DNA of 64,000 bases from positions 129,924-193,923 of the forward strand of contig LYOR01000002.1 in assembly GCA_001766825.1 (NCBI GenBank), in the 5' to 3' direction. The notes under the pieces were generated by a model. The model saw only the letters and a program-made list of their open reading frames with translations, did no database searches and was not told the DNA's origin. This document shows, piece by piece, positions 3,001 through 24,133 of this stretch. This DNA comes from Candidatus Syntropharchaeum butanivorans. Lineage in GTDB: Archaea > Halobacteriota > Syntropharchaeia > Syntropharchaeales > Syntropharchaeaceae. Position numbers and translations under genes: made by a program. How positions within the stretch are numbered: the stretch's first letter is position 1; each line of letters begins with the position of its first letter.

Positions 3001-5660
3001 AGCACACCCTTTATCGAATCACCCCATATCCATGGAGTCCATCCAACGAAGCTCTCGTTGTAGCTTATTACAAGGTTCCCCCTCTTATCATAGATGCGGA
3101 GTGTAGAATTATCATGAAGCTCGGAAGATATGTAGAGCCTTATCGCTACCGCACCATCTTTCTCCATCACCTCGCTATCCATGCTCCATTCAGGATCGTA
3201 CCAGCCACGAAACATGGAAAGATATGCTCCGTTCTCGGATCTCTTTCTGCAATCATAAACCGCTAAGTTCGCATTATAAACCCCCATATCCCCCCTATTC
3301 TCAATCGTTGCGTTGATCTGGATCGTATCTCCTGCATCAACCCTGGATGGAACGGTCAGATTATCCACAGCAAGATCAGATGCGTTTATGTAGATCCACT
3401 CGGTGAGTTCATTATTGCTCTCATCACGCTCGAATACCCTGTTATCAAAATCAGCCTTAACGGTTAAACGATGCCCACCTCCAGCATCAACCCTCCATGG
3501 AATCTCCACGACCTCTGTATCATCTGCATCGATTAAGATCGTGGTATTGTTGAGTGGCAGATCATACCCATCAAGAAATAGACCCAGATCAACCAGTCCC
3601 CCTCTCACACCCTGATTTTTCACTGTTATCCTGAAGACTGCATCCTCTCCTACTCCAAGAGGAGGAATCGTTACGTTTTCTACATGAAAATCCCTGGAAG
3701 GATTCACGGTGACAGATCTCATTATCTCATTATTCGTGAGATCGGACTCGGGGTTATCACCCGGGTCAATCAAAACCCTTATCGTATGGTTCAGGCTATG
3801 TTTCTCACCATCCCATGTTCTCGCGTTCCAGGTGGCATTGACGATAATGCTATGATTCGCATCAAGCCCGGTGATGTTCTGGATATGGAAGGGTTCAGCC
3901 CCTGAATCATTGAAGAAGAGCACAGAGAAAGCATCTGCATCTTTTATTCCTAAATTCGCTATTCTGGTTGTGATCTTCAATGCATCAGAATCCCATACCT
4001 CACCCTCCATCAGGATTTCATCCACAGCAAGATCCGTGCCCCCCGTGATGAGACCCCTCCCAATCGTCCGGTTATTTACCTCAGCCCAGATCGTGTGCTC
4101 ACCCCTTTCTGTCTTCCATCTGATCGTTGTACCCTCGATCATGCCCGGGAGGACGGAGATTCTCTTCTCGGCGAGAGGTGTTCTGTATCCCAGCGTGATT
4201 CCATCATATCGCTTCCATCGGATCATGATATTCTCCCCTTCATACCATCCTGTCCATAGATCCTCAAGCCTCCCGCTATACTCCTCTACCAATCTCCCCT
4301 CTCCATCATAGACCCTGAGATAGTCCCCCGGATAGTACTGGCTCACATTTGCACTCTCGATATGAACCTGAATCGCAGATGCACCTGGAGATGATACGTT
4401 AATCACACCGATACTGGCACATGGGGCATAATGACTGCTATTCTTCCCTAAATAAAACCAGACAGTGCAGTTTTCACTCCTGTTTCCAGTATTCTTAACC
4501 ATGGCGGTTATATTCACCTCCTCACCAACCTCTGGATGTGCTGGTAGCATGGTGAGGTTGAGAAGATCAAGATCCGATGAGAGTTTAACCTTTATCGCTC
4601 TGGAAAGGGAGTTGTTCATCTCATCACACTCCGGGATATCATTATCAGGATCAAGCTCAACCGTTATTGTGTGGGTTGCACCTCTATTGAAGAAGTTCGT
4701 CCATGCACCCCACGCCGCAGAAGCATATCCTGTGCCATTGATGGTGACATTCTTTCGCTCAAAGGGGATACCATCGACCCTGAACTCAACGGCAACATCC
4801 CCTTTTCCATCCGCACCCCCTTCTGTGCATCTTATCGTTGCATTTACAAGAACATTCTCTCCTTCCAGGGGGTCTTCAGGTACAAAGCTTATATCTGTAA
4901 CCGCAAAGTCGAGCGCCCCCTTAACATGTATTCCTTCTGTCAATTCGTTGTTATCCTCGTTTATCTCCTCTACAGCATCATCCGGGTCAGCAATCACGGT
5001 TATATTGTGCTTACCCCGCATCACCTCAATGCTGAGTGTCTCATTCTGAATTTGAAGAGGTGTTGCGTTCCAGGTGACCGTGATAGGCATCGTCTCGTTC
5101 GCGTCAAGGGATATGTTCTCATCTGCGATCACAGCCTCATACCGTGTGTTCCAGTATGCAACATAACCGGACGTCGACCCAACAAAAGCGTGCACCCTGA
5201 TCGTATCCCCCTCAACCCATCTGCTCCAGGTATCAGACGGATTGGTTTCATCGATCCTCTCAACGAGGTTGCCTTTTCCATCGTAGATTTCAATGTAGGA
5301 ATATGTGCCTATGGATATACCATTCTCGAAAAATATTCTTATTCTACGAGCACCCGGATAGATGAAGGTGTCATCTGAGGTTGAACCATAGCCTGTAAGA
5401 TATCTCCACCCCCATACCTCTGAGATATTCTTCTCATCCCGAAACTCGAGATCGCAGGATGCGCTTCCATTCCCGATATTTGAGATATAAGCAGTTATCC
5501 TGTTTGTGTGATTTTCCATCGGATATGGCGGATCAAACACGATATCTGTTACTGTGAGATCGGCTCTTTCGGTCAGGCTCTCTCCAAATGCAACTCCAGT
5601 ATTTGCCATCTGAAGCGAGAGAGATAAAACCATCCAGAGTGCAAGTAGCTTGAGGTTCAT
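1..5660 (-). CDS. Very large secreted cell-surface protein with multiple CARDB-like repeats (N-terminal >1880 aa; ORF continues past the left edge)
   Basis: The minus frame is open from ATG at 5660-5658 to position 1. I hand-translated both ends. It is not in the ORF track because its stop is outside the window. The N-terminus MNLKLLALWMVLSLSLQMANTGVAFG looks like a signal peptide. CARDB-type end motifs recur, e.g. VIADPDDAVEEINEDNNEL (~4940-5000), VELDPDNDIPECDEMNN (~4600-4660), EVIADSDDAITETDEENNIA (~2461-2530) and VDPEERIPENDRENNYA (~1890-1940). The listed + strand ORFs here are low-complexity antisense shadows. Confidence 0.8.
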   Translation of the reverse strand, partial: MNLKLLALWMVLSLSLQMANTGVAFGESLTERADLTVTDIVFDPPYPMENHTNRITAYISNIGNGSASCDLEFRDEKNISEVWGWRYLTGYGSTSDDTFIYPGARRIRIFFENGISIGTYSYIEIYDGKGNLVERIDETNPSDTWSRWVEGDTIRVHAFVGSTSGYVAYWNTRYEAVIADENISLDANETMPITVTWNATPLQIQNETLSIEVMRGKHNITVIADPDDAVEEINEDNNELTEGIHVKGALDFAVTDISFVPEDPLEGENVLVNATIRCTEGGADGKGDVAVEFRVDGIPFERKNVTINGTGYASAAWGAWTNFFNRGATHTITVELDPDNDIPECDEMNNSLSRAIKVKLSSDLDLLNLTMLPAHPEVGEEVNITAMVKNTGNRSENCTVWFYLGKNSSHYAPCASIGVINVSSPGASAIQVHIESANVSQYYPGDYLRVYDGEGRLVEEYSGRLEDLWTGWYEGENIMIRWKRYDGITLGYRTPLAEKRISVLPGMIEGTTIRWKTERGEHTIWAEVNNRTIGRGLITGGTDLAVDEILMEGEVWDSDALKITTRIANLGIKDADAFSVLFFNDSGAEPFHIQNITGLDANHSIIVNATWNARTWDGEKHSLNHTIRVLIDPGDNPESDLTNNEIMRSVTVNPSRDFHVENVTIPPLGVGEDAVFRITVKNQGVRGGLVDLGLFLDGYDLPLNNTTILIDADDTEVVEIPWRVDAGGGHRLTVKADFDNRVFERDESNNELTEWIYINASDLAVDNLTVPSRVDAGDTIQINATIENRGDMGVYNANLAVYDCRKRSENGAYLSMFRGWYDPEWSMDSEVMEKDGAVAIRLYISSELHDNSTLRIYDKRGNLVISYNESFVGWTPWIWGDSIKGVLQKAEGHSWGGVGASTCEWLEGDEVWRGELNLSQGEVRNITCNITARAGVHLIGIALDPEDEIIEQHEVNNVEWREILVRGADLAADVSLVTDAIRHGEDVNITATIRNIGVFDASNFSLEILVDDFPLLSRDNLTLAPARSLNISVTWKAATGNHTVEVIADSDDAITETDEENNIAIREIWVDAADLNVSGISFTEPFDGDDVNITARIENQGVNRADNFSAIIFYEIEDLGEYNKADGTVGSGWIWINRSLEGAGCVILRIYYSRNIDGNVMVFDKDGVCVAAPSRDGWITVFGDEANVYFNKVSGVGIGMEFYAGNFKRYESLSLDANQSINLSMIQPVSTGNHTVMVLVDPEERIPENDRENNYAESTMAVEPSRDFTVGEIIFIKNGRAIGANDTIEDGERVTISASVRNQGIRDGTCDFDIIYESEWINITPGWVLTPSGYALVIAHPGCDGIRIHLDELALGYGGCVEARDDDGHLLWSRCHGGASDLTTPWFDTDKIYIYRAERLGSGQDYPYGRINPVIDRYQYRFVNRSSLYLPVNTTGYINTSWNVSWNPTVKVIADPDGVVGEIDEMNNGMEKVLNLTPVRDPEVLDISFNPANPVEGDDVLISATIRNSGCENATFTVEMWAELIEDYTIESGHGDEFPKGYFEWEVNKSYQDADWIGAHFKRIDTAEPDHYRTLFVDDGEDRRIGYFTFFEGGDIWTWACDDKIRIKTMKDEFHHVGVYGFKIDRLGYRYILNRTNLTLPPNGSCNITGELYNLTLGNRTSSYKVYVSVDRDNILYEVNEENNEREKVLWVHGPDLTVSGIEYNGTDTVAKIENVGIGNASNVTVRFLRDREYFLERSGTSLEDYLIQEADAECMRVHVKELNVTEGYNGYLKVGDLEYDYDRRDFWSPWITGNCTRLDWSSAYFIIDRYEYGIDEKLGNLSAGEVKGWAVPFDAVNEVYNLTVVCDPENDISESDEGNNAKGIEMGPDISVKIPPNENDFYLLV

Positions 5661-18788: not shown

Positions 18789-19649
18789 TTATACCCCCAA
18801 ACCCGATCTTATCCCATCAAAGACTGCCAGAAACTGCTCGCGCCATTCATCAATTACTTTGACAAATGGAACACCCCGGGAGTAACTTATGGCAATCTCC
18901 TTCATGTACGGGATCTCAAGAAGGATCTCAATCCCCTCATCTTTGCAGTAATCATAAACCCCTCTGTCACCCATACCGGACCGGTTCACAACAACCCCAA
19001 AGGGGATTCCAAGCTCCCTCATCACCCCAACAGCAAGCTTAAGATCGTACAACCCAAAAGGTGTTGGCTCTGTGACAAGGATGCAGTAATTGCTACCATA
19101 CACAGAATGGATTACAGGACATGAAACACCAGGCGGAGCGTCGATTATGACCGTTTTATCACCATTTAACTCTCTCTTAACAGCCTTTATCAGAAGACTT
19201 GGCATTGGCTCACCGATTGCAAGCTCCCCATAGACCAGATCAATCTCACCACACCGCCCCTTTATAATCCTCCCTATCTCCTTCTCACCCTCCCTGATTG
19301 CACCCTCAGGACATACAAGCACACATCCACCGCATCCATGACAGAGATTGGGAAACAGGATCGTATCACCCTTAAGCCCCTTCTCTGGATGGGGGCCTAT
19401 CACAAAAAGTGCATTGTACGCACAGAACTCGGCACATTTTCTACAGAAGCTGCATCTGCCCTTCTCAATCAGAGGTATCATCGATGAGACGCTCTTTATC
19501 TCTTTTATATCTGGTTTGAGGAAGATATGAGCATCCGGCTCCTCAACATCACAGTCAAGAAGCTGGGCATCTTCGATTGAGAGTGCAAGGTTGACTGCAA
19601 CCGTCGTCTTCCCGGTTCCCCCTTTCCCGGATGCAACAGAGATTATCAT
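18789..19649 (-). CDS. MinD/Mrp-type P-loop ATPase with inserted 2x[4Fe-4S] ferredoxin domain
   Basis: P-loop SGKGGTGKTT. Two cysteine clusters are present: CSFCRKCAEFC and CHGCGGCVLVCP. Confidence 0.8.
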   Translation of the reverse strand: MIISVASGKGGTGKTTVAVNLALSIEDAQLLDCDVEEPDAHIFLKPDIKEIKSVSSMIPLIEKGRCSFCRKCAEFCAYNALFVIGPHPEKGLKGDTILFPNLCHGCGGCVLVCPEGAIREGEKEIGRIIKGRCGEIDLVYGELAIGEPMPSLLIKAVKRELNGDKTVIIDAPPGVSCPVIHSVYGSNYCILVTEPTPFGLYDLKLAVGVMRELGIPFGVVVNRSGMGDRGVYDYCKDEGIEILLEIPYMKEIAISYSRGVPFVKVIDEWREQFLAVFDGIRSGLGV

Positions 19650-19652
19650 GGT

Positions 19653-20198
19653 CTAAAATAGTGGATGAATCTCGTAATATGCATCATCCATACCCGGCCT
19701 TATCCAGGGGCTTATGAGCCCTGCACCCTTGAGCTCTGCGATAAGCGCGCCTGCATCCCTGATCCCAAAACCAGACGCGATATCAGCGATCCTGCTTGCA
19801 GATATCTTTCCCGAGTCAGCAGATCTTCTGATCCTATCGAAAAGAGCGGGCATTATCCCGGACAGAGGATCTTCTATCATTCTGAAGTACTCCCTTATCG
19901 CATACTCCCTATCCCACACACCTGTCTCTACTGCCCTCATCAGAGCAATCCTCACAACATTGGGGATGCTGTATCTACCCCCAAATGAGCGTTCACCACT
20001 CTTCCACGAGAGGCTTTCACCATCAGCCACGATGAGCCTTAAACCCTCTGCCTCGAGTATAACCTCATCTGTCTCCTCCCCAAAGATCTGCTCTATCTCC
20101 TCATGGGTGATTCCGTCCTCTATCGAGTGAAGAAGTGCAGAAATCTCCCTGAAGGACGCTGTAAATCCCCTTAATGCATCTTCAAGTCTGCCTGTCAT
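19653..20198 (-). CDS. Hypothetical protein (~181 aa), operon member
   Basis: The ORF is co-directional and its stop lies 3 nt before the MinD-Fd start. The start is uncertain: ATG at 20198, 20228 or 20273. I recognise no family. Confidence 0.4.
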   Translation of the reverse strand: MTGRLEDALRGFTASFREISALLHSIEDGITHEEIEQIFGEETDEVILEAEGLRLIVADGESLSWKSGERSFGGRYSIPNVVRIALMRAVETGVWDREYAIREYFRMIEDPLSGIMPALFDRIRRSADSGKISASRIADIASGFGIRDAGALIAELKGAGLISPWIRPGMDDAYYEIHPLF

Positions 20199-20469
20199 CA
20201 ATCCCCATCCTGACCCTGTATCCACCATCCTCACTGAAGCTGAGAATGAGGTATGCGCTCCTCCCTCTCCCAATCTCGTCTTCTATCATACTTCGGTATG
20301 CAGGAAGGTTCTCATCCTCAAGAAATCTAAGAAGAATCTCTATCTCCTCTTCTGACTCCCTATCTTCACACCCTGATACCATATACCTATCAACAGCCTT
20401 CCAGTACCGCCTTCTGGCAACAGTCTCGACACACAGGCCTCGTTCTGGCTTTATGATAAGTTCTTTCAT
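20182..20469 (-). CDS. Hypothetical protein (95 aa), operon member
   Basis: ATGA overlap with the upstream NifX-like stop (20466-20469). I recognise no family. Confidence 0.4.
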   Translation of the reverse strand: MKELIIKPERGLCVETVARRRYWKAVDRYMVSGCEDRESEEEIEILLRFLEDENLPAYRSMIEDEIGRGRSAYLILSFSEDGGYRVRMGIDDRQT

Positions 20470-20834
20470 ATCATACCGTGCCTGTGTTCCCTGCAGGCGT
20501 ACTCATAGCTTGCCGGCATGAGCCGCCCTTCCTGCCATGATCTTATCGCATCTCTCACTCTTCCAGACGCGCCGATATAGACCTCAATCCCAAACCTCTC
20601 AAACATACCTATCGCCCTTGGACCAAGCCCTGAACAGAGCATAACTTCAACCCCCTCTTTCGAGAGCATCTCTGGGGGATATCCGACACCTCCGAAGTGC
20701 TCGCTTGTATTTGATACCACCTTAACCTCTCCGCTCTCAAGATCAAGAATCGTGAACGTCGGCGCACGTCCAAAGTGCTCACATACTATATCATCCAGTC
20801 CGGCATCCCCATAGGTAGGCACACACACCTTCAT
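20466..20834 (-). CDS. NifX/NifB-C-terminal-like (dinitrogenase FeMo-cofactor biosynthesis fold) protein
   Basis: MKVCVPTYGDAGLDDIVCEHFGRAPTFTILDLESGEV...GVEVMLCSGLGPRAIGMFERFGIEVY matches the family pattern. A GGAGGTGA SD precedes the ATG at 20834. Confidence 0.75.
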   Translation of the reverse strand: MKVCVPTYGDAGLDDIVCEHFGRAPTFTILDLESGEVKVVSNTSEHFGGVGYPPEMLSKEGVEVMLCSGLGPRAIGMFERFGIEVYIGASGRVRDAIRSWQEGRLMPASYEYACREHRHGMI

Positions 20835-20839
20835 CAAGC

Positions 20840-21277
20840 TCACCTCCCAATCCTTCCTTCTAACCATCCGATCTTGACATCATCCACACCATCAAACGCA
20901 GGCACAAACGGCTTTATATCAATGAGTGGTGTTCCATCAACGAGATCTAACCCTCTAACCTTAAGTACATTATCCATCCTCTCAAGAAGCCTCACGATGG
21001 AGAGGCCTATGGGGTTTGGTCGATGTGGGGATCTTGTCGCAAAGACCCCATGCGGCCTTGCGTCCCATGGCGTTCTCACCATAAGTTTATACCCATCCGA
21101 TCTATCCAGCCAACAGAGAAGGATCAGATGCGAGAATCCCTCAACATCGGTTAACCCTTCCTCAAACTCCCTGAAGACCTCAACCTCACCTACCGTATCT
21201 GTGCCTGCACCCTGACGTGGACACTCAAGAACTGTCTTATAAGGGGTGTGGATTGTCCCGATCGGTTCAACCTCCAC
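20840..21277 (-). CDS. TsaA/TrmO-like (UPF0066) SAM-dependent methyltransferase-fold protein
   Basis: IGTIHTPYK...CPRQG...GFSHLILLCW...GVFATRSPHRPNPIGLSIVRLL...LDLVDGTPLIDIKP. Confidence 0.75.
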   Translation of the reverse strand: MEVEPIGTIHTPYKTVLECPRQGAGTDTVGEVEVFREFEEGLTDVEGFSHLILLCWLDRSDGYKLMVRTPWDARPHGVFATRSPHRPNPIGLSIVRLLERMDNVLKVRGLDLVDGTPLIDIKPFVPAFDGVDDVKIGWLEGRIGR

Positions 21278-21713
21278 CCTTTCTCCTCCTGTAATCTGCT
21301 ATCGCCTCTTTGAGTGTGTTTACCGCAAGCACAGGGCAGTGGAGATGTTCTTCTGGGAGATCACCAAGAACCGAGAGTATCTCCTCATCGTTGAGCCGGG
21401 ATGCCTCCTCGACCGTCTTACCCCTGATGAGCTCAGTCAGCACAGAGCCACATGCAATCGTGGGTCCACACCCATCTGTGAGAAACCTGGCCTCGATGAT
21501 CCTCTCATCCTCAATCTTGAGGTATATCTCCATCGTATCACCGCATGGACCTGTTATCCGCGAAGCCCCATCCGGATCTTCGATCATCCCCACATTCTTC
21601 GGGTTCAAAGCCTCCTCAACCACCCGTTCACTGAAAATCTCCAGCGCATCTCGGATTATTGCCTGCTGAATATCATCCACAAGCTCATCGAGAGTTGAGA
21701 CTTTCTCGGCCAT
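21267..21713 (-). CDS. NifU-N/IscU-like Fe-S cluster scaffold protein
   Basis: Conserved cysteines in GPCGD, GCGPTIACGS and HLHCPVLA. I chose the ATG at 21713 (MAEKVSTLDEL); the track starts at TTG 21752. Confidence 0.75.
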   Translation of the reverse strand: MAEKVSTLDELVDDIQQAIIRDALEIFSERVVEEALNPKNVGMIEDPDGASRITGPCGDTMEIYLKIEDERIIEARFLTDGCGPTIACGSVLTELIRGKTVEEASRLNDEEILSVLGDLPEEHLHCPVLAVNTLKEAIADYRRRKGGG

Positions 21714-21741
21714 CGCAACACCACGTGAAAGCTTCAACTCC

Positions 21742-22101
21742 CTACTTTCCAAGCTCCTCCAGCCGCTTTTTTATCTCTGCAAGCCGTTGCTCTATCATCC
21801 TCGCCTCTGCTTCGAGCATCTGGATCTCCTGCCCCTCTGTGAAAGTACCCGGGCCAAAGAACGGCGCAGAGAAAGCACCAAAACGAGGTCTAAAGTCCCT
21901 GCATGCCTCACTCATGGGATCTACCTCTTTATCCTTGAGAGAGCATCTGTTGGGTGGGACAAAGTATGCACAGGCACCGTGTGTGGCAGGAGGTACCTGT
22001 ACTCCTGGAGATACCCCTCCCCAGCCGGGAGAGTAACCAAATCTCATCCAGCCTGGGAGCCCTGTCATGTAGTACATATTTCTCCATCTGTATCCTGCCA
22101 T
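21742..22101 (-). CDS. DUF5320-like small protein, paralog a (aromatic/Gly/Pro-rich N-half, coiled-coil tail)
   Basis: MAGYRWRNMYYMTGLPGWMRFGYSPGW... and ...EIQMLEAEARMIEQRLAEIKKRLEEL. A GGAGGTGATGAGAAG SD is identical to that of paralog b. Confidence 0.7.
   Translation of the reverse strand: MAGYRWRNMYYMTGLPGWMRFGYSPGWGGVSPGVQVPPATHGACAYFVPPNRCSLKDKEVDPMSEACRDFRPRFGAFSAPFFGPGTFTEGQEIQMLEAEARMIEQRLAEIKKRLEELGK
21751..21832. repeat. 82-bp direct repeat copy A (coiled-coil coding tail)
   Basis: Identical to 22556-22637 except for one mismatch (21811 t versus 22616 c). Confidence 0.9.
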
Positions 22102-22117
22102 CTTCTCATCACCTCCT
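22074..22117. repeat. 44-bp direct repeat (SD + first 9 codons) copy A
   Basis: acatatttctccatctgtatcctgccatcttctcatcacctcct is identical to 22825-22868. Confidence 0.9.
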
Positions 22118-22123
22118 TTTTCT

Positions 22124-22291
22124 TTACGGTCTTACCATCCTTGATCCACACTTCGGACAGATCTCTTCATAGCACGGTACACCACGCTTGTGTGGAACGG
22201 TGGTTCCACAGCTTGGACACTTACACTCACCCCCGGGTCCAAGCCCTCTTCCACCCATTCTCCCCCGTCCTCCTCTACCCATTCCTGCCAT
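22124..22291 (-). CDS. Small (55 aa) Gly/Arg-rich zinc-ribbon protein, not in ORF track
   Basis: Hand translation codon by codon gives MAGMGRGGRGRMGGRGLGPGGECKCPSCGTTVPHKRGVPCYEEICPKCGSRMVRP*. It has two CxxC pairs. Its ATG (22291-22289) directly abuts the TGA (22294-22292) of the upstream ORF in the same frame. Its stop is 22 nt before the paralog a start. Confidence 0.65.
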   Translation of the reverse strand: MAGMGRGGRGRMGGRGLGPGGECKCPSCGTTVPHKRGVPCYEEICPKCGSRMVRP

Positions 22292-22468
22292 TCAGTACCA
22301 CCACCTGTACCAGTACAGGTGCCAGTATGGCAGGGGCATACCATACCAGGTGGTGCCGAACCCATAACCTCTCCACCACCACCTGGGAAGCCAGGGGAAT
22401 ACCCTGCAGAATGGATAGGGGTTGCCCCTCCACCCTCTTGCAGGCCACCAGAATCCTCTTCCAAACAC
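22292..22468 (-). CDS. Trp/Tyr/Arg/Gly/Pro-rich small protein (58 aa)
   Basis: VFGRGFWWPARGWRGNPYPFCRVFPWLPRWWWRGYGFGTTWYGMPLPYWHLYWYRWWY has 12 Trp in 58 residues. A GGAGGTGA SD lies 5 nt before GTG 22468. An alternative +1 frame (22132-22464) is also open, so the frame call is tentative. Confidence 0.4.
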   Translation of the reverse strand: MFGRGFWWPARGWRGNPYPFCRVFPWLPRWWWRGYGFGTTWYGMPLPYWHLYWYRWWY

Positions 22469-22546
22469 TTTTATCACCTCCTCAATCTACCAATACCAAA
22501 CCTCGTGTCAACCTCTCAGGATCGCCGGCCACCGCCGGAGAGATTC

Positions 22547-22852
22547 TCATCCTTTAAGCTCCTCCAGCCGCTTTTTTATCTCTGCAAGCCGTTGCTCTAT
22601 CATCCTCGCCTCTGCCTCGAGCATCTGGATCTCCTGCTCCTTTGTCACCCCTGCAGGCGCCATTGGTACCGCTGGTGGAGCCCACCCTGGAGCCTGCTGC
22701 TGCATCCACGCCATAAACCCGGGAATCTGCCCGGTCTGGCTCAGATACTGAGCCGCTGGAGGTAACCCTCCCCAGCCTGGAGAATAACCAAACCTCACCC
22801 ATCCAGGCAATCCTGTAAGGTAATACATATTTCTCCATCTGTATCCTGCCAT
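22547..22852 (-). CDS. DUF5320-like small protein, paralog b
   Basis: MAGYRWRNMYYLTGLPGWVRFGYSPGW...EIQMLEAEARMIEQRLAEIKKRLEELKG. Its 5' 44 nt and 3' 82 nt are (near-)identical to paralog a. Confidence 0.7.
   Translation of the reverse strand: MAGYRWRNMYYLTGLPGWVRFGYSPGWGGLPPAAQYLSQTGQIPGFMAWMQQQAPGWAPPAVPMAPAGVTKEQEIQMLEAEARMIEQRLAEIKKRLEELKG
22556..22637. repeat. 82-bp direct repeat copy B
   Basis: See copy A. Its first 28 nt recur at 23375-23402. Confidence 0.9.
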
Positions 22853-22868
22853 CTTCTCATCACCTCCT
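22825..22868. repeat. 44-bp direct repeat copy B
   Basis: Identical to 22074-22117. Confidence 0.9.
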
Positions 22869-23369
22869 GATCCTCTTTTTTATATCCTCAAGCTCATCTT
22901 CAAGCCTCTTTACCCGTTCAAGCAGATCATCCACATCTCTGCTTGCCATAGATGCCTGCTGCTCGATGTTAACCCTTCTACCCATCCCGCGCGTTCCAGG
23001 AGAGGTCCCCATCCCGAAGTGCCCCGGGACTGTTGCACCACCGGTCTCAAGAAGCTCCCCACGCTTATACATGTCGATTGCATCCCTGACCGTACCGTAG
23101 GCACCTGTTACAACCTTCACACCCGCAGCAGATAGTGTCTGGAACGCATTTGGTCCGATGTTCCCAGAGATGAGCACGTCCACACCTTTATTGACGATTG
23201 TCTGCGCTGCCTGAATCCCTGCACCACTTGCAGCCCCCACACTCTCATTGGGAACTGCCTCAAACGCCATGGTATCCGGATCAACGATCACAAAGTACCC
23301 GCATCTTCCAAACCTCGGGTCAACCTCTGCGTCAAGATCGCCGGCCACCGCGGTCACACATATCTTCAT
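22860..23369 (-). CDS. NifX/NifB-C-like protein fused to a Gly/Arg linker and DUF5320-like coiled-coil tail
   Basis: The N-terminal ~115 aa is MKICVTAVAGDLDAEVDPRFGRCGYFVIVD...GVDVLISGNIGPNAFQTLSAAGVKVV. The tail is GHFGMGTSPGTRGMGRR...DVDDLLERVKRLEDELEDIKKRIRR. ATGA overlap with the upstream stop. Confidence 0.75.
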   Translation of the reverse strand: MKICVTAVAGDLDAEVDPRFGRCGYFVIVDPDTMAFEAVPNESVGAASGAGIQAAQTIVNKGVDVLISGNIGPNAFQTLSAAGVKVVTGAYGTVRDAIDMYKRGELLETGGATVPGHFGMGTSPGTRGMGRRVNIEQQASMASRDVDDLLERVKRLEDELEDIKKRIRR

Positions 23370-23602
23370 CCTTTAAGCTCCTCCAGCCGCTTTTTTATCT
23401 CTCCAACCCGCTCTTCAAGGACCTTAAGCTCTCTCTCAAGAGCCTCTCTCTCATCCGACGGGCTTGGCCAGCCATATGGATATGGCATCACCTCATAGGG
23501 TTCTGGTATCCAGAGCCATGCATGAGGGCCAAACCCACACCTGCAAGGACCTCTTACCCAGACCACCCACATCACCTCAAGTGAATATACATTCATAATC
23601 AC
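23366..23602 (-). CDS. DUF5320-like small protein, paralog c (divergent aromatic N-half, same coiled-coil tail)
   Basis: ...MWVVWVRGPCRCGFGPHAWLWIPEPYEVMPYPYGWPSPSDEREALERELKVLEERVGEIKKRLEELKG. The last 28 nt of coding sequence are identical to paralogs a and b. The start may be the ATG at 23572 rather than 23602. Confidence 0.55.
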   Translation of the reverse strand: MIMNVYSLEVMWVVWVRGPCRCGFGPHAWLWIPEPYEVMPYPYGWPSPSDEREALERELKVLEERVGEIKKRLEELKG

Positions 23603-24010
23603 TTAAACCTTTCGGTGGGGTGGGCCTCTTCCCCCCTCCCGGGCCACGGAGGATACGCTTATACCACCACATATGGGACACCTCTCAAGAGGAGCTCCCC
23701 ACTCACTTCTGCAGTCATAACAGAGGTTTCTGAATCTGTAGTCCCCTCCACTCACCCGTATAGCCTTTCCATCAACAAGGGCCTCTGCTACCTTTCTTCG
23801 GGCCTCTTTCAGGATCCTGTGAAACGTCGGCTGGGAGATATCCATCAGCTTAGCTGCCTCGATCTGATCGAGTTGGAGAAGGTCCTTGAGCCTCAGACTC
23901 TCAAGCTCCTCTATCTTAAGCACGATCTCCCCCTTTGCCCTCCCCCCTGGCCTGAAGTACCTGAAATCAGGATGAAAGCCCACCCGTCTGCATCGCCTCG
24001 GTCTCGGCAT
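23603..24010 (-). CDS. DUF134 (UPF0251) putative DNA-binding protein with C-terminal zinc ribbon
   Basis: MPRPRRCRRVGFHPDFRYFRPGG is a DUF134 signature. An HTH-like segment is QIEAAKLMDISQPTFHRILKEARRKV. The C-terminus has CYDC...CPICGG. I chose the ATG at 24010. Confidence 0.75.
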   Translation of the reverse strand: MPRPRRCRRVGFHPDFRYFRPGGRAKGEIVLKIEELESLRLKDLLQLDQIEAAKLMDISQPTFHRILKEARRKVAEALVDGKAIRVSGGDYRFRNLCYDCRSEWGAPLERCPICGGISVSSVAREGGRGPPHRKV

Positions 24011-24133
24011 ATATGAATTTATATCCATAATAGCATTAAAGCTTGTCCCGGGTCTCTTCAGAAGCGTGTTTCAGGGTGAAGCCAGTAAACTTCTTAGGCT
24101 ACCATGCAGTAAGAAGATGGGGAGAGCTGGTCC
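24011..24133. promoter_or_regulatory. Divergent promoter region between the DUF134 operon and the PurM-like gene
   Basis: 123-bp gap. On the minus strand a TATA-like ttaatgctattat lies ~25-35 nt upstream of ATG 24010, which would give a short-leader or leaderless mRNA. Confidence 0.3.

Follow-up and report, generated by a model that had tools for sequence, protein, structure and literature searches.

Shared tails and distinct conserved cores in three DUF5320-type small proteins from an operon of Ca. Syntrophoarchaeum butanivorans

The window analyzed here is a 64-kb stretch of contig LYOR01000002.1 from Ca. Syntrophoarchaeum butanivorans, a butane-oxidising archaeon. Within it, an operon on the minus strand carries three small genes, which we call a, b and c, whose products end in a common coiled-coil tail and are variants of the DUF5320 family (Pfam PF17253); protein a is 100% identical to a database protein named from this species. 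Sequence comparison indicates that the three belong to different subtypes of this small-protein family, which separated anciently. It also gives good support for reading the near-identical ends of a and b, together with the shorter stretch of identity with c, as tracts of ectopic gene conversion and not as what is left of a recent duplication. Every gene of the region lies on the minus strand, and packing is tight or overlapping, the stop of c for example overlapping the ATG of the adjacent NifX-like gene (ATGA). The features on which the argument rests are the following, in the order of transcription, with the repeated tracts at the end.

23366..23602, minus strand: paralog c, a c-type DUF5320 small protein with the motif RGPCRCGFGPHAW and a coiled-coil tail (PF17253, 26.0 bits)
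22860..23369, minus strand: NifX-like (Nitro_FeMo-Co) protein of 169 amino acids (PF02579, 91.5 bits), with a Gly/Met/Arg linker and a DUF5320-like coiled-coil tail
22547..22852, minus strand: paralog b, a b-type DUF5320 protein without Cys, encoded by a mosaic gene
22489..22557, minus strand: frameshifted remnant of the 5' end of a NifX-like gene, reading MRISPAVAGDPERLTRGLVLVD and then a stop (85% identity, 22496-22591 versus 23308-23410)
22292..22468, minus strand: Trp-rich small open reading frame (ORF) of 58 amino acids, recognized by synteny and motif conservation
22124..22291, minus strand: Gly/Arg-rich and Cys-rich, zinc-ribbon-like small ORF of 55 amino acids with 6 Cys, recognized by weak zinc-ribbon Pfam matches and conservation
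21742..22101, minus strand: paralog a, an a-type DUF5320 protein with the head motif, a His-Cys3 insert (H41, C44, C53, C67) and a coiled-coil tail
21751..21840, no strand assigned: copy in a of the tail tract, a putative conversion tract, with partners at 22556-22645 in b and at 23375-23410 in c (34/36 nt)
22005..22117, no strand assigned: copy in a of the head repeat, with its partner at 22756-22868 in b, the first 44 nt being identical

The initial annotation of this DNA had described three small ORFs with a common tail, and all three are indeed present on the minus strand at the coordinates given above. It had also reported an a/b repeat of 82 bp with a single mismatch, which we recovered as 81/82 matching nt, and 44 identical bp over the Shine-Dalgarno (SD) sequence and codons 1-9 (22074-22117 versus 22825-22868), which were confirmed. 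In longer alignments, the tail of a (21751-21840) matches that of b (22556-22645) at 87/90 nt (blastn E ~1e-38), and the heads (22005-22117 versus 22756-22868) are 88% identical over 113 nt. For c, only the last 28 nt had been said to be shared. That the tail of c is shared was correct, but the match is longer, with 34/36 nt in common with a (23375-23410) and 37 identical nt in common with b at the extreme end (23366-23402 versus 22547-22583), ending AAAGGATGA. Overlooked altogether was a similarity of b and c that extends ~60 nt beyond the stop (22496-22591 versus 23308-23410, 85% identical with four gaps), the segment 23308-23410 being made up of the c tail and the first ~20 codons of the NifX-like gene. 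Gene b is a mosaic: its first 44 nt and its 82-nt tail tract agree with a, its core is of the b-type, and its last 9 nt, like the sequence downstream, agree with the c/NifX junction. Sequence comparison found the end repeats of a, b and c nowhere else in the window, and a profile search of all its ORFs for further family copies returned only a, b, c and the NifX tail. The repeated tracts had no Rfam match and their RNA folded no better than shuffled sequences (z 0.26, 0.34, -0.76 and -0.81, the first two values being those of the tails).

Between these shared ends, each protein carries a core that is found in other organisms. Protein b has 177 database homologs, many of them full length at 55-76% identity and several named 'DUF5320 domain-containing protein', which come from Methanophagales (ANME-1), Syntropharchaeia, Methanocellales, Bipolaricaulota, Desulfobacteria and Anaerolineae; its core is also present in GoM-Arc1 and Thermotogae. 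A scan of GTDB species genomes gave ~350 b-type loci, and in an alignment of 126 b-type sequences the head (NMYYLTGLPGWMRFGYSPGW) and the middle (AQYLxQTGQxPQFxSW) were nearly invariant. The Cys-containing middle of a recurs in 20 other cluster representatives, including the Syntropharchaeia metagenome-assembled genome (MAG) P0092 and archaeon Yes46-13 (P0122), with H41, C44, C53 and C67 invariant in 21/21 a-type sequences. Protein c carries GPCRCGFGPHAW, with a CxC...H motif; this subtype is rarer, and the pattern GPCRCG[FLYM]GPHA[WFY] followed by the tail was found in 12 representatives at E<1e-3. Archaeon Yes46-13 encodes an a-type and a b-type protein in one operon, and there the DNA identity between the two genes is 73% in the head and 65% in the tail, which is the divergence that old paralogs would be expected to show. 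Judged from these alignments, the central segments are conserved subtype signatures and not diversifying cores, and at least three conserved subtypes are gathered under the name DUF5320, two of them with candidate metal ligands. Genomic neighborhoods were counted over a range of 5 kb in 80 GTDB loci with b-type genes, 25 of which have full flanks, and two head-motif genes in one locus were seen in 1/80. Several ANME-1 genomes have two or three separate b-type loci, examples being L022 and L024 of ANME-1 AG-394-G06, ~13 kb apart on one contig, and L018, L026 and L037 of Methanophagales CSMAG_2436.

The tails are the element common to all three subtypes. Proteins a, b and c and the adjacent NifX-like protein end in an amphipathic helix of approximately four heptads, with hydrophobic residues at 88-100% of the heptad a/d positions versus 5-17% elsewhere and a clean 3-4 spacing. 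AlphaFold2 models have a single long C-terminal helix at residues 89-118 in a and 71-100 in b, so that the coiled-coil tail proposed at the outset holds up both in the heptad pattern and in the predicted structures. The Pfam model PF17253 aligns to the tails only (profile positions 45/46-99 in a, b and c), scoring 29.5 bits for b, above the gathering cut-off of 27 bits, and 24.0 (E=9e-5) and 26.0 bits (E=2e-5) for a and c, just below it. The Gly/Met/Arg-rich N-terminal half of the model (positions 1-44) did not align to any of the three, and the NifX-like protein has a weak match at residues 117-168. The earlier guess of DUF5320 membership was reasonable; the accompanying proposal that the N-terminal MAGYRWRNMYY...GYSPGW resembles the DUF5320 core was wrong, because the model aligns only to the tail.

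A canonical DUF5320 protein such as P0192 (MPRGDGTGPMGxGPMTGRxAGYCAGYG... followed by a coiled coil) scores 111 bits across the full model, positions 1-99. Proteins a, b and c have the same C-terminal heptad helix as this protein and the same genomic company (DUF134, NifX-like and MinD-Fer4 genes), and NCBI calls the orthologs of a and b 'DUF5320 domain-containing protein'. They differ from it in that a and b have another, strongly conserved head (GYRWRNMYYxTGLPGWxRFGYSPGW), a has the His-Cys3 insert and c has CxC..H. No Pfam or NCBIfam model covers this head motif, and NCBIfam has no family for a, b, c or the Trp-rich ORF. Searches against solved structures gave generic coiled-coil matches only (best E = 0.0013), and a Foldseek comparison of the a model with the PDB gave a lone, non-significant HiPIP match (E = 7.4) that we did not use as evidence.

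The ends of a and b have a history distinct from that of their cores. Considering only codons for the same amino acid in both genes, synonymous differences between a and b were found at 1/27 codons in the tail and at 8/18 in head codons 10-29 (Fisher p=0.0014), with none in the first nine codons. In a comparison across five genomes, the tail nucleotide identity is 0.99 between a and b and 0.46-0.80 for any other pair of orthologs or paralogs, so that the tail tract groups paralogs while the core groups orthologs. The strains add to this picture. The only tail difference, GAA/GAG (window positions 21811 in a and 22616 in b), is polymorphic across strains in both a and b and is swapped between assemblies (a=GAA and b=GAG in the window, a=GAG and b=GAA in L001); the AAT/AAC site of codon 8 (22078 and 22829) is likewise polymorphic in a and in b. 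Positions 22047 and 22042 of the window are variable too. Two more strain variants in the a head carry the b state, one variant in the c tail (L003) carries the a/b state, and the NifX remnant and the intact NifX-like gene share a T/G polymorphism at homologous sites. All five variable sites of the a region fall inside its repeated parts, and three of them coincide with the 17/203 sites that differ between a and b and have the paralog's allele (binomial p 2e-4 to 5e-3). The tracts thus appear to be still exchanging within the population. The reading of the ends as conversion tracts follows from the conservation of the cores as subtypes, taken together with an identity of only 65% between a and b tails in another genome.

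As to direction, the b orthologs nearest in the core (P0003-5, P0008, P0014, P0021, the sister-species locus L023, and L013) have a tail that is one heptad shorter, KEQEIQxLEAQLDxIKRRLEELK, and the a-type ortholog of L006 has the long ...ARMIEQ... tail. Because the near b orthologs are short-tailed and the L006 a-type protein is long-tailed, the tail tract was most likely transferred from a into b. Long-lasting gene conversion between prokaryotic paralogs has been described for the duplicated mtrA of methanogens (PMC4632066) and in a survey (PMC6053082), and the mechanism has archaeal precedents. As in such cases, paralogs of the same operon or genome are here partly closer to each other than to their own orthologs. 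What differs here is that the tracts are very short (44 and 82 nt), that they are confined to the ends of small genes whose subtypes differ, and that a third paralog and a pseudogene fragment take part. For short-tract gene conversion in an uncultured archaeon, this locus provides a clean example from nature.

Other origins of the repeated ends have to be weighed against this reading. Duplicated or chimeric repeats could have been created by the metagenome assembler, an outcome that the initial annotation had itself raised and that would suit a MAG-type source assembly with repeats shorter than a read. However, the same order and repeats were found at 97-99% identity in six independent assemblies (L001-L003 and L007-L009), namely two NCBI MAGs that span the locus in full (L001, L007), two contigs from a single JGI metagenome (L002, L008) and a pair of ENA assemblies (L003, L009), and each repeat copy has unique sequence on both sides. 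The agreement of six independent assemblies on the arrangement leads us to regard the repeats as real and to give an assembly artefact almost no credence. A second possibility, raised at the outset, is that a recent tandem duplication gave rise to a and b, after which the middle diversified fast while the ends stayed conserved. Near-identical ends and unalignable middles are what such a history would leave, but this is very unlikely as the b core is found in hundreds of genomes, the a insert with its invariant His and three Cys is found in 21 representatives, other Syntropharchaeia among them, and the closest b orthologs have a different, shorter tail. The eight synonymous differences already present in head codons 10-29, against one in the tail, also argue against it, and each core has orthologs in other lineages, with a and b of Yes46-13 only 73% and 65% identical in head and tail. 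Of the earlier alternatives 'recent duplication or gene conversion', the synonymous sites and shared polymorphisms favor the latter, and the former is not supported. Selection could also keep the ends identical with no exchange of DNA, acting either on the protein, if a heteromeric coiled coil needs identical tails, or on an element of the RNA or of translation initiation. The tail protein sequence is well conserved across the family and the 44-nt head tract spans the SD sequence and start codon, both of which would fit. Against this, the synonymous sites of the tail are nearly all identical too, DNA identity is only 46-80% between orthologs whose protein tails are similar, the tail RNA has no excess structure and no Rfam match, and polymorphisms are common to the paralogs; we consider purifying selection alone an improbable explanation.

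The sequence downstream of b offers a view of how the locus was assembled. A short non-coding stretch follows b, and the remnant there is a pseudogene fragment, because a 4-nt deletion breaks the frame of what in the intact NifX-like gene reads MKICVTAVAGDLDAEVDPRFG. Past this fragment comes ...TTGAGGAGGTGATAAAAGTG, which is similar to the junction of 3' end and SD found after the tailed NifX gene of L004 and L006. The usual order in relatives is DUF134, (ParA/Mrp), NifX-like with DUF5320 tail, Trp-rich ORF, zinc-ribbon ORF, b-type gene, NifU, NifX-like, one to three MinD-Fer4 genes and radical SAM; in S. butanivorans, b and the NifX fragment have the tailed NifX gene on one side and the Trp-rich ORF on the other. 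Gene c is absent from the sister species Ca. Syntrophoarchaeum sp. 12019_3 (L023), which has one b-type gene, with a tail one heptad shorter. It also has a decayed a-type ORF (4731-4973) in which the His-Cys3 insert is kept, the head motif has decayed and there is no coiled-coil tail. The simplest history that we infer for b and the NifX fragment would begin with a tandem duplication of a unit consisting of a DUF5320 gene followed by a NifX gene with tail. An internal deletion would then have removed the second NifX gene, leaving b and the 5' fragment of NifX, and conversion among the tails would have come later.

The neighborhood of these genes points to the company that the proteins may keep. 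In the 80 loci surveyed, a NifX-like gene is near the b-type gene in 73 (25/25 of those with full flanks), a MinD/ParA-type ATPase in 63 (24/25) and DUF134 in 46. The initial annotation had suggested a link to NifX-like proteins, and this was a reasonable suggestion, as fusion of a DUF5320 tail to a NifX-like domain is the rule: it is seen in this genome and in every related locus examined, and the fusion proteins of L004, L010-L013 and L023 match both Pfam families. DUF5320 together with DUF134 and the NifX-like/MinD-Fer4 genes is among the most widespread uncharacterised gene neighborhoods of strict anaerobes, spanning ANME-1, alkane-oxidising archaea, Bipolaricaulota, Thermotogae and sulfate reducers. 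Its sole studied relative is the ORange Protein (ORP) complex of Desulfovibrio. That complex includes the MinD-like Fe-S ATPases Orp3 and Orp4, the NifX-like orange protein Orp8, the MrpORP protein Orp9 and the small [2Fe-2S] protein Orp5 (PMC6345978, PMC8359166), and its function is possibly division-related, MrpORP being polar (PMC6345978). Neither paper mentions DUF5320-type proteins in the ORP complex.

Judged from the genes, the neighborhood described here partially resembles the Desulfovibrio cluster. Both are anaerobe-specific and combine, in one operon, NifX-like proteins (PF02579, here in two copies at 91.5 and 79.5 bits), a MinD-type ATPase with two [4Fe-4S] motifs and small Cys-containing proteins. 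The present operon differs in having one MinD-Fer4 gene instead of the Orp3/Orp4 pair, although relatives of this locus have two or three, and in having no Mrp-NifX fusion and DUF134 as regulator instead of sigma54/OrpR. The NCBIfam model for MrpORP gave partial matches only, at 30.7 and 41.3 bits versus a cut-off of 450.

Taken together, we regard it as likely that a, b and c are three old DUF5320 subtypes whose ends are exchanged by gene conversion and whose tails serve as docking modules in an ORP-like operon. The docking part of this proposal is suggested by the fusion of the tail to a NifX-like domain, a Rosetta-stone link, and by the conserved ORP-like neighborhood. The tails would form homo- or heteromeric coiled coils and so tether the small proteins both among themselves and to the NifX-like carrier with its tail. 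Such tethering would bring candidate ligand sets, His-Cys3 from a and CxC-His from c, and the aromatic/Gly/Pro head module of a and b to an ORP-like machine for Fe-S or metallocluster handling driven by MinD-type ATPases, and identical tails would keep the partners compatible. Several points weigh against this proposal. Protein b has no Cys or His, so that a ligand role cannot hold for every member, and the parallel with ORP is partial, the operon having a single MinD-Fer4 ATPase and lacking an Mrp-NifX fusion. Outside the helix, AlphaFold2 confidence is low (predicted local distance difference test score, pLDDT, of 62-64; ~70-78 in the a insert), and literature searches for DUF5320, PF17253 and IPR035205 turned up two incidental mentions and neither experiments nor expression data for any DUF5320 protein. 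Only a few relatives underlie the direction of conversion and the history of duplication and deletion. Finally, the strain variants come from short-read metagenome assemblies and those in the 82-nt repeat could be mis-phased; this is unlikely as they lie 6-21 nt from paralog-specific sites.

The gene context also allows a reading in which the DUF5320 small proteins, by analogy with MinE, ParB N-peptides or McdB, act as partners or activators of the MinD/ParA-type Fe-S ATPases encoded next to them and not as metal-ligand subunits of the NifX-like carrier. Small partners of ParA/MinD-type ATPases such as McdB and MinE have a flexible basic N-terminus and a coiled-coil oligomerisation helix. The DUF5320 proteins are likewise small, are encoded beside such an ATPase in most of the loci surveyed, and have an Arg-rich N-terminus predicted at low confidence followed by a C-terminal coiled coil. 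In addition, the ORP proteins of Desulfovibrio have been tied, putatively, to cell division, with MrpORP at the poles (PMC6345978). The likeness is limited to architecture and gene context: sequence similarity to known ParA partners was not found, nor was any sequence or structural match to McdB or MinE. This reading moreover leaves the His/Cys motifs of a and c unexplained and sits poorly with the NifX fusion, which suggests that the NifX-like protein is the direct partner, so that we consider the reading unlikely. A broader version of the docking proposal is one that we put forward as doubtful. DUF5320 might be a modular plug-in system, in which a common tail kept interchangeable by conversion docks alternative heads (His-Cys3, CxC-His or the aromatic GYRWRNMYY...GYSPGW) onto the tailed NifX-like carrier or onto MinD-type Fe-S ATPases and which, with the Trp-rich and zinc-ribbon micro-proteins, would form a hitherto unrecognised micro-protein layer of an anaerobe-wide, ORP-like machine for assembling or positioning metalloclusters. 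Whichever applies, a, b and c are members of a known, uncharacterised family in a known conserved neighborhood, and no new kind of system is involved. The value of the locus lies in the subtype definitions, the NifX-like link and the overlooked micro-ORFs, and it yields testable hypotheses, namely that the tails dock to one another and that proteins of the a and c types bind Fe-S clusters.

The two micro-ORFs between b and a are conserved and routinely missed by annotation, both being uncalled in the NCBI annotations of L001 and L007. The Trp-rich ORF contains 12 Trp in 58 amino acids (41% aromatic) and the motif NPYPFCRxFPWLPRWWW, which is found in 32/80 related loci. Its conservation was judged from syntenic six-frame ORFs, and it occupies the same syntenic position in L004, L006, L010, L011, L012 and L023, which include archaea and Bipolaricaulota. 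It had no Pfam or NCBIfam match, and a homolog search of protein databases gave no candidates, probably because the ORF is seldom called as a gene. In the zinc-ribbon ORF, CxCPxCG...H..G.PC....CPxCG comes after an N-terminus rich in Gly and Arg. This ORF is conserved in L006, L011, L012 and L023, its motif is present in 38/80 related loci, and it may be a candidate for the 'small Fe-S protein' class of ORP operons.

The complete order of the operon is DUF134, c, NifX-like with tail, b, NifX remnant, Trp-rich ORF, zinc-ribbon ORF, a, NifU, TrmO-like, NifX-like, AF_2379, AF_2141 and MinD-Fer4 ATPase. The genes on either side of the small-protein cluster are the following.

23603..24028, minus strand: DUF134 (UPF0251-type helix-turn-helix) gene, the first of the operon (PF02001, 90.4 bits)
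18789..21752, minus strand: remaining operon, delimited from the ORF list and Pfam assignments and made up of the next five entries
21752-21267, minus strand: NifU_N (Pfam)
21277-20840, minus strand: TrmO-like (Pfam)
20867-20466, minus strand: second NifX-like gene (PF02579, 79.5 bits)
19653-20469, minus strand: AF_2379 (95 amino acids) and AF_2141 (181-206 amino acids) family proteins, both of recently defined Pfam families, between the second NifX-like gene and MinD-Fer4
19649-18789, minus strand: MinD/CbiA ATPase with an insert of two [4Fe-4S] motifs (MinD-Fer4; Pfam)

A scan for promoters and terminators gave nothing that exceeded the expectation from shuffled sequence. The start of c is ambiguous, with annotations giving 66, 76 or 78 amino acids. 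The candidates (23566-23602, minus strand) are a GTG right after the DUF134 stop, an ATG 6 nt further on, and an ATG/GTG preceded by a GAGGTGA Shine-Dalgarno sequence. Translation probably begins at one of the downstream candidates, for a protein of 66-76 amino acids. Opposite the small-gene cluster, two antisense ORFs of 256 and 191 amino acids are free of stops (21787-22557 and 22190-22765, plus strand). In L002 (990-1460) and L013 (5528-5962), gene callers have annotated antisense ORFs instead of the real micro-ORFs.

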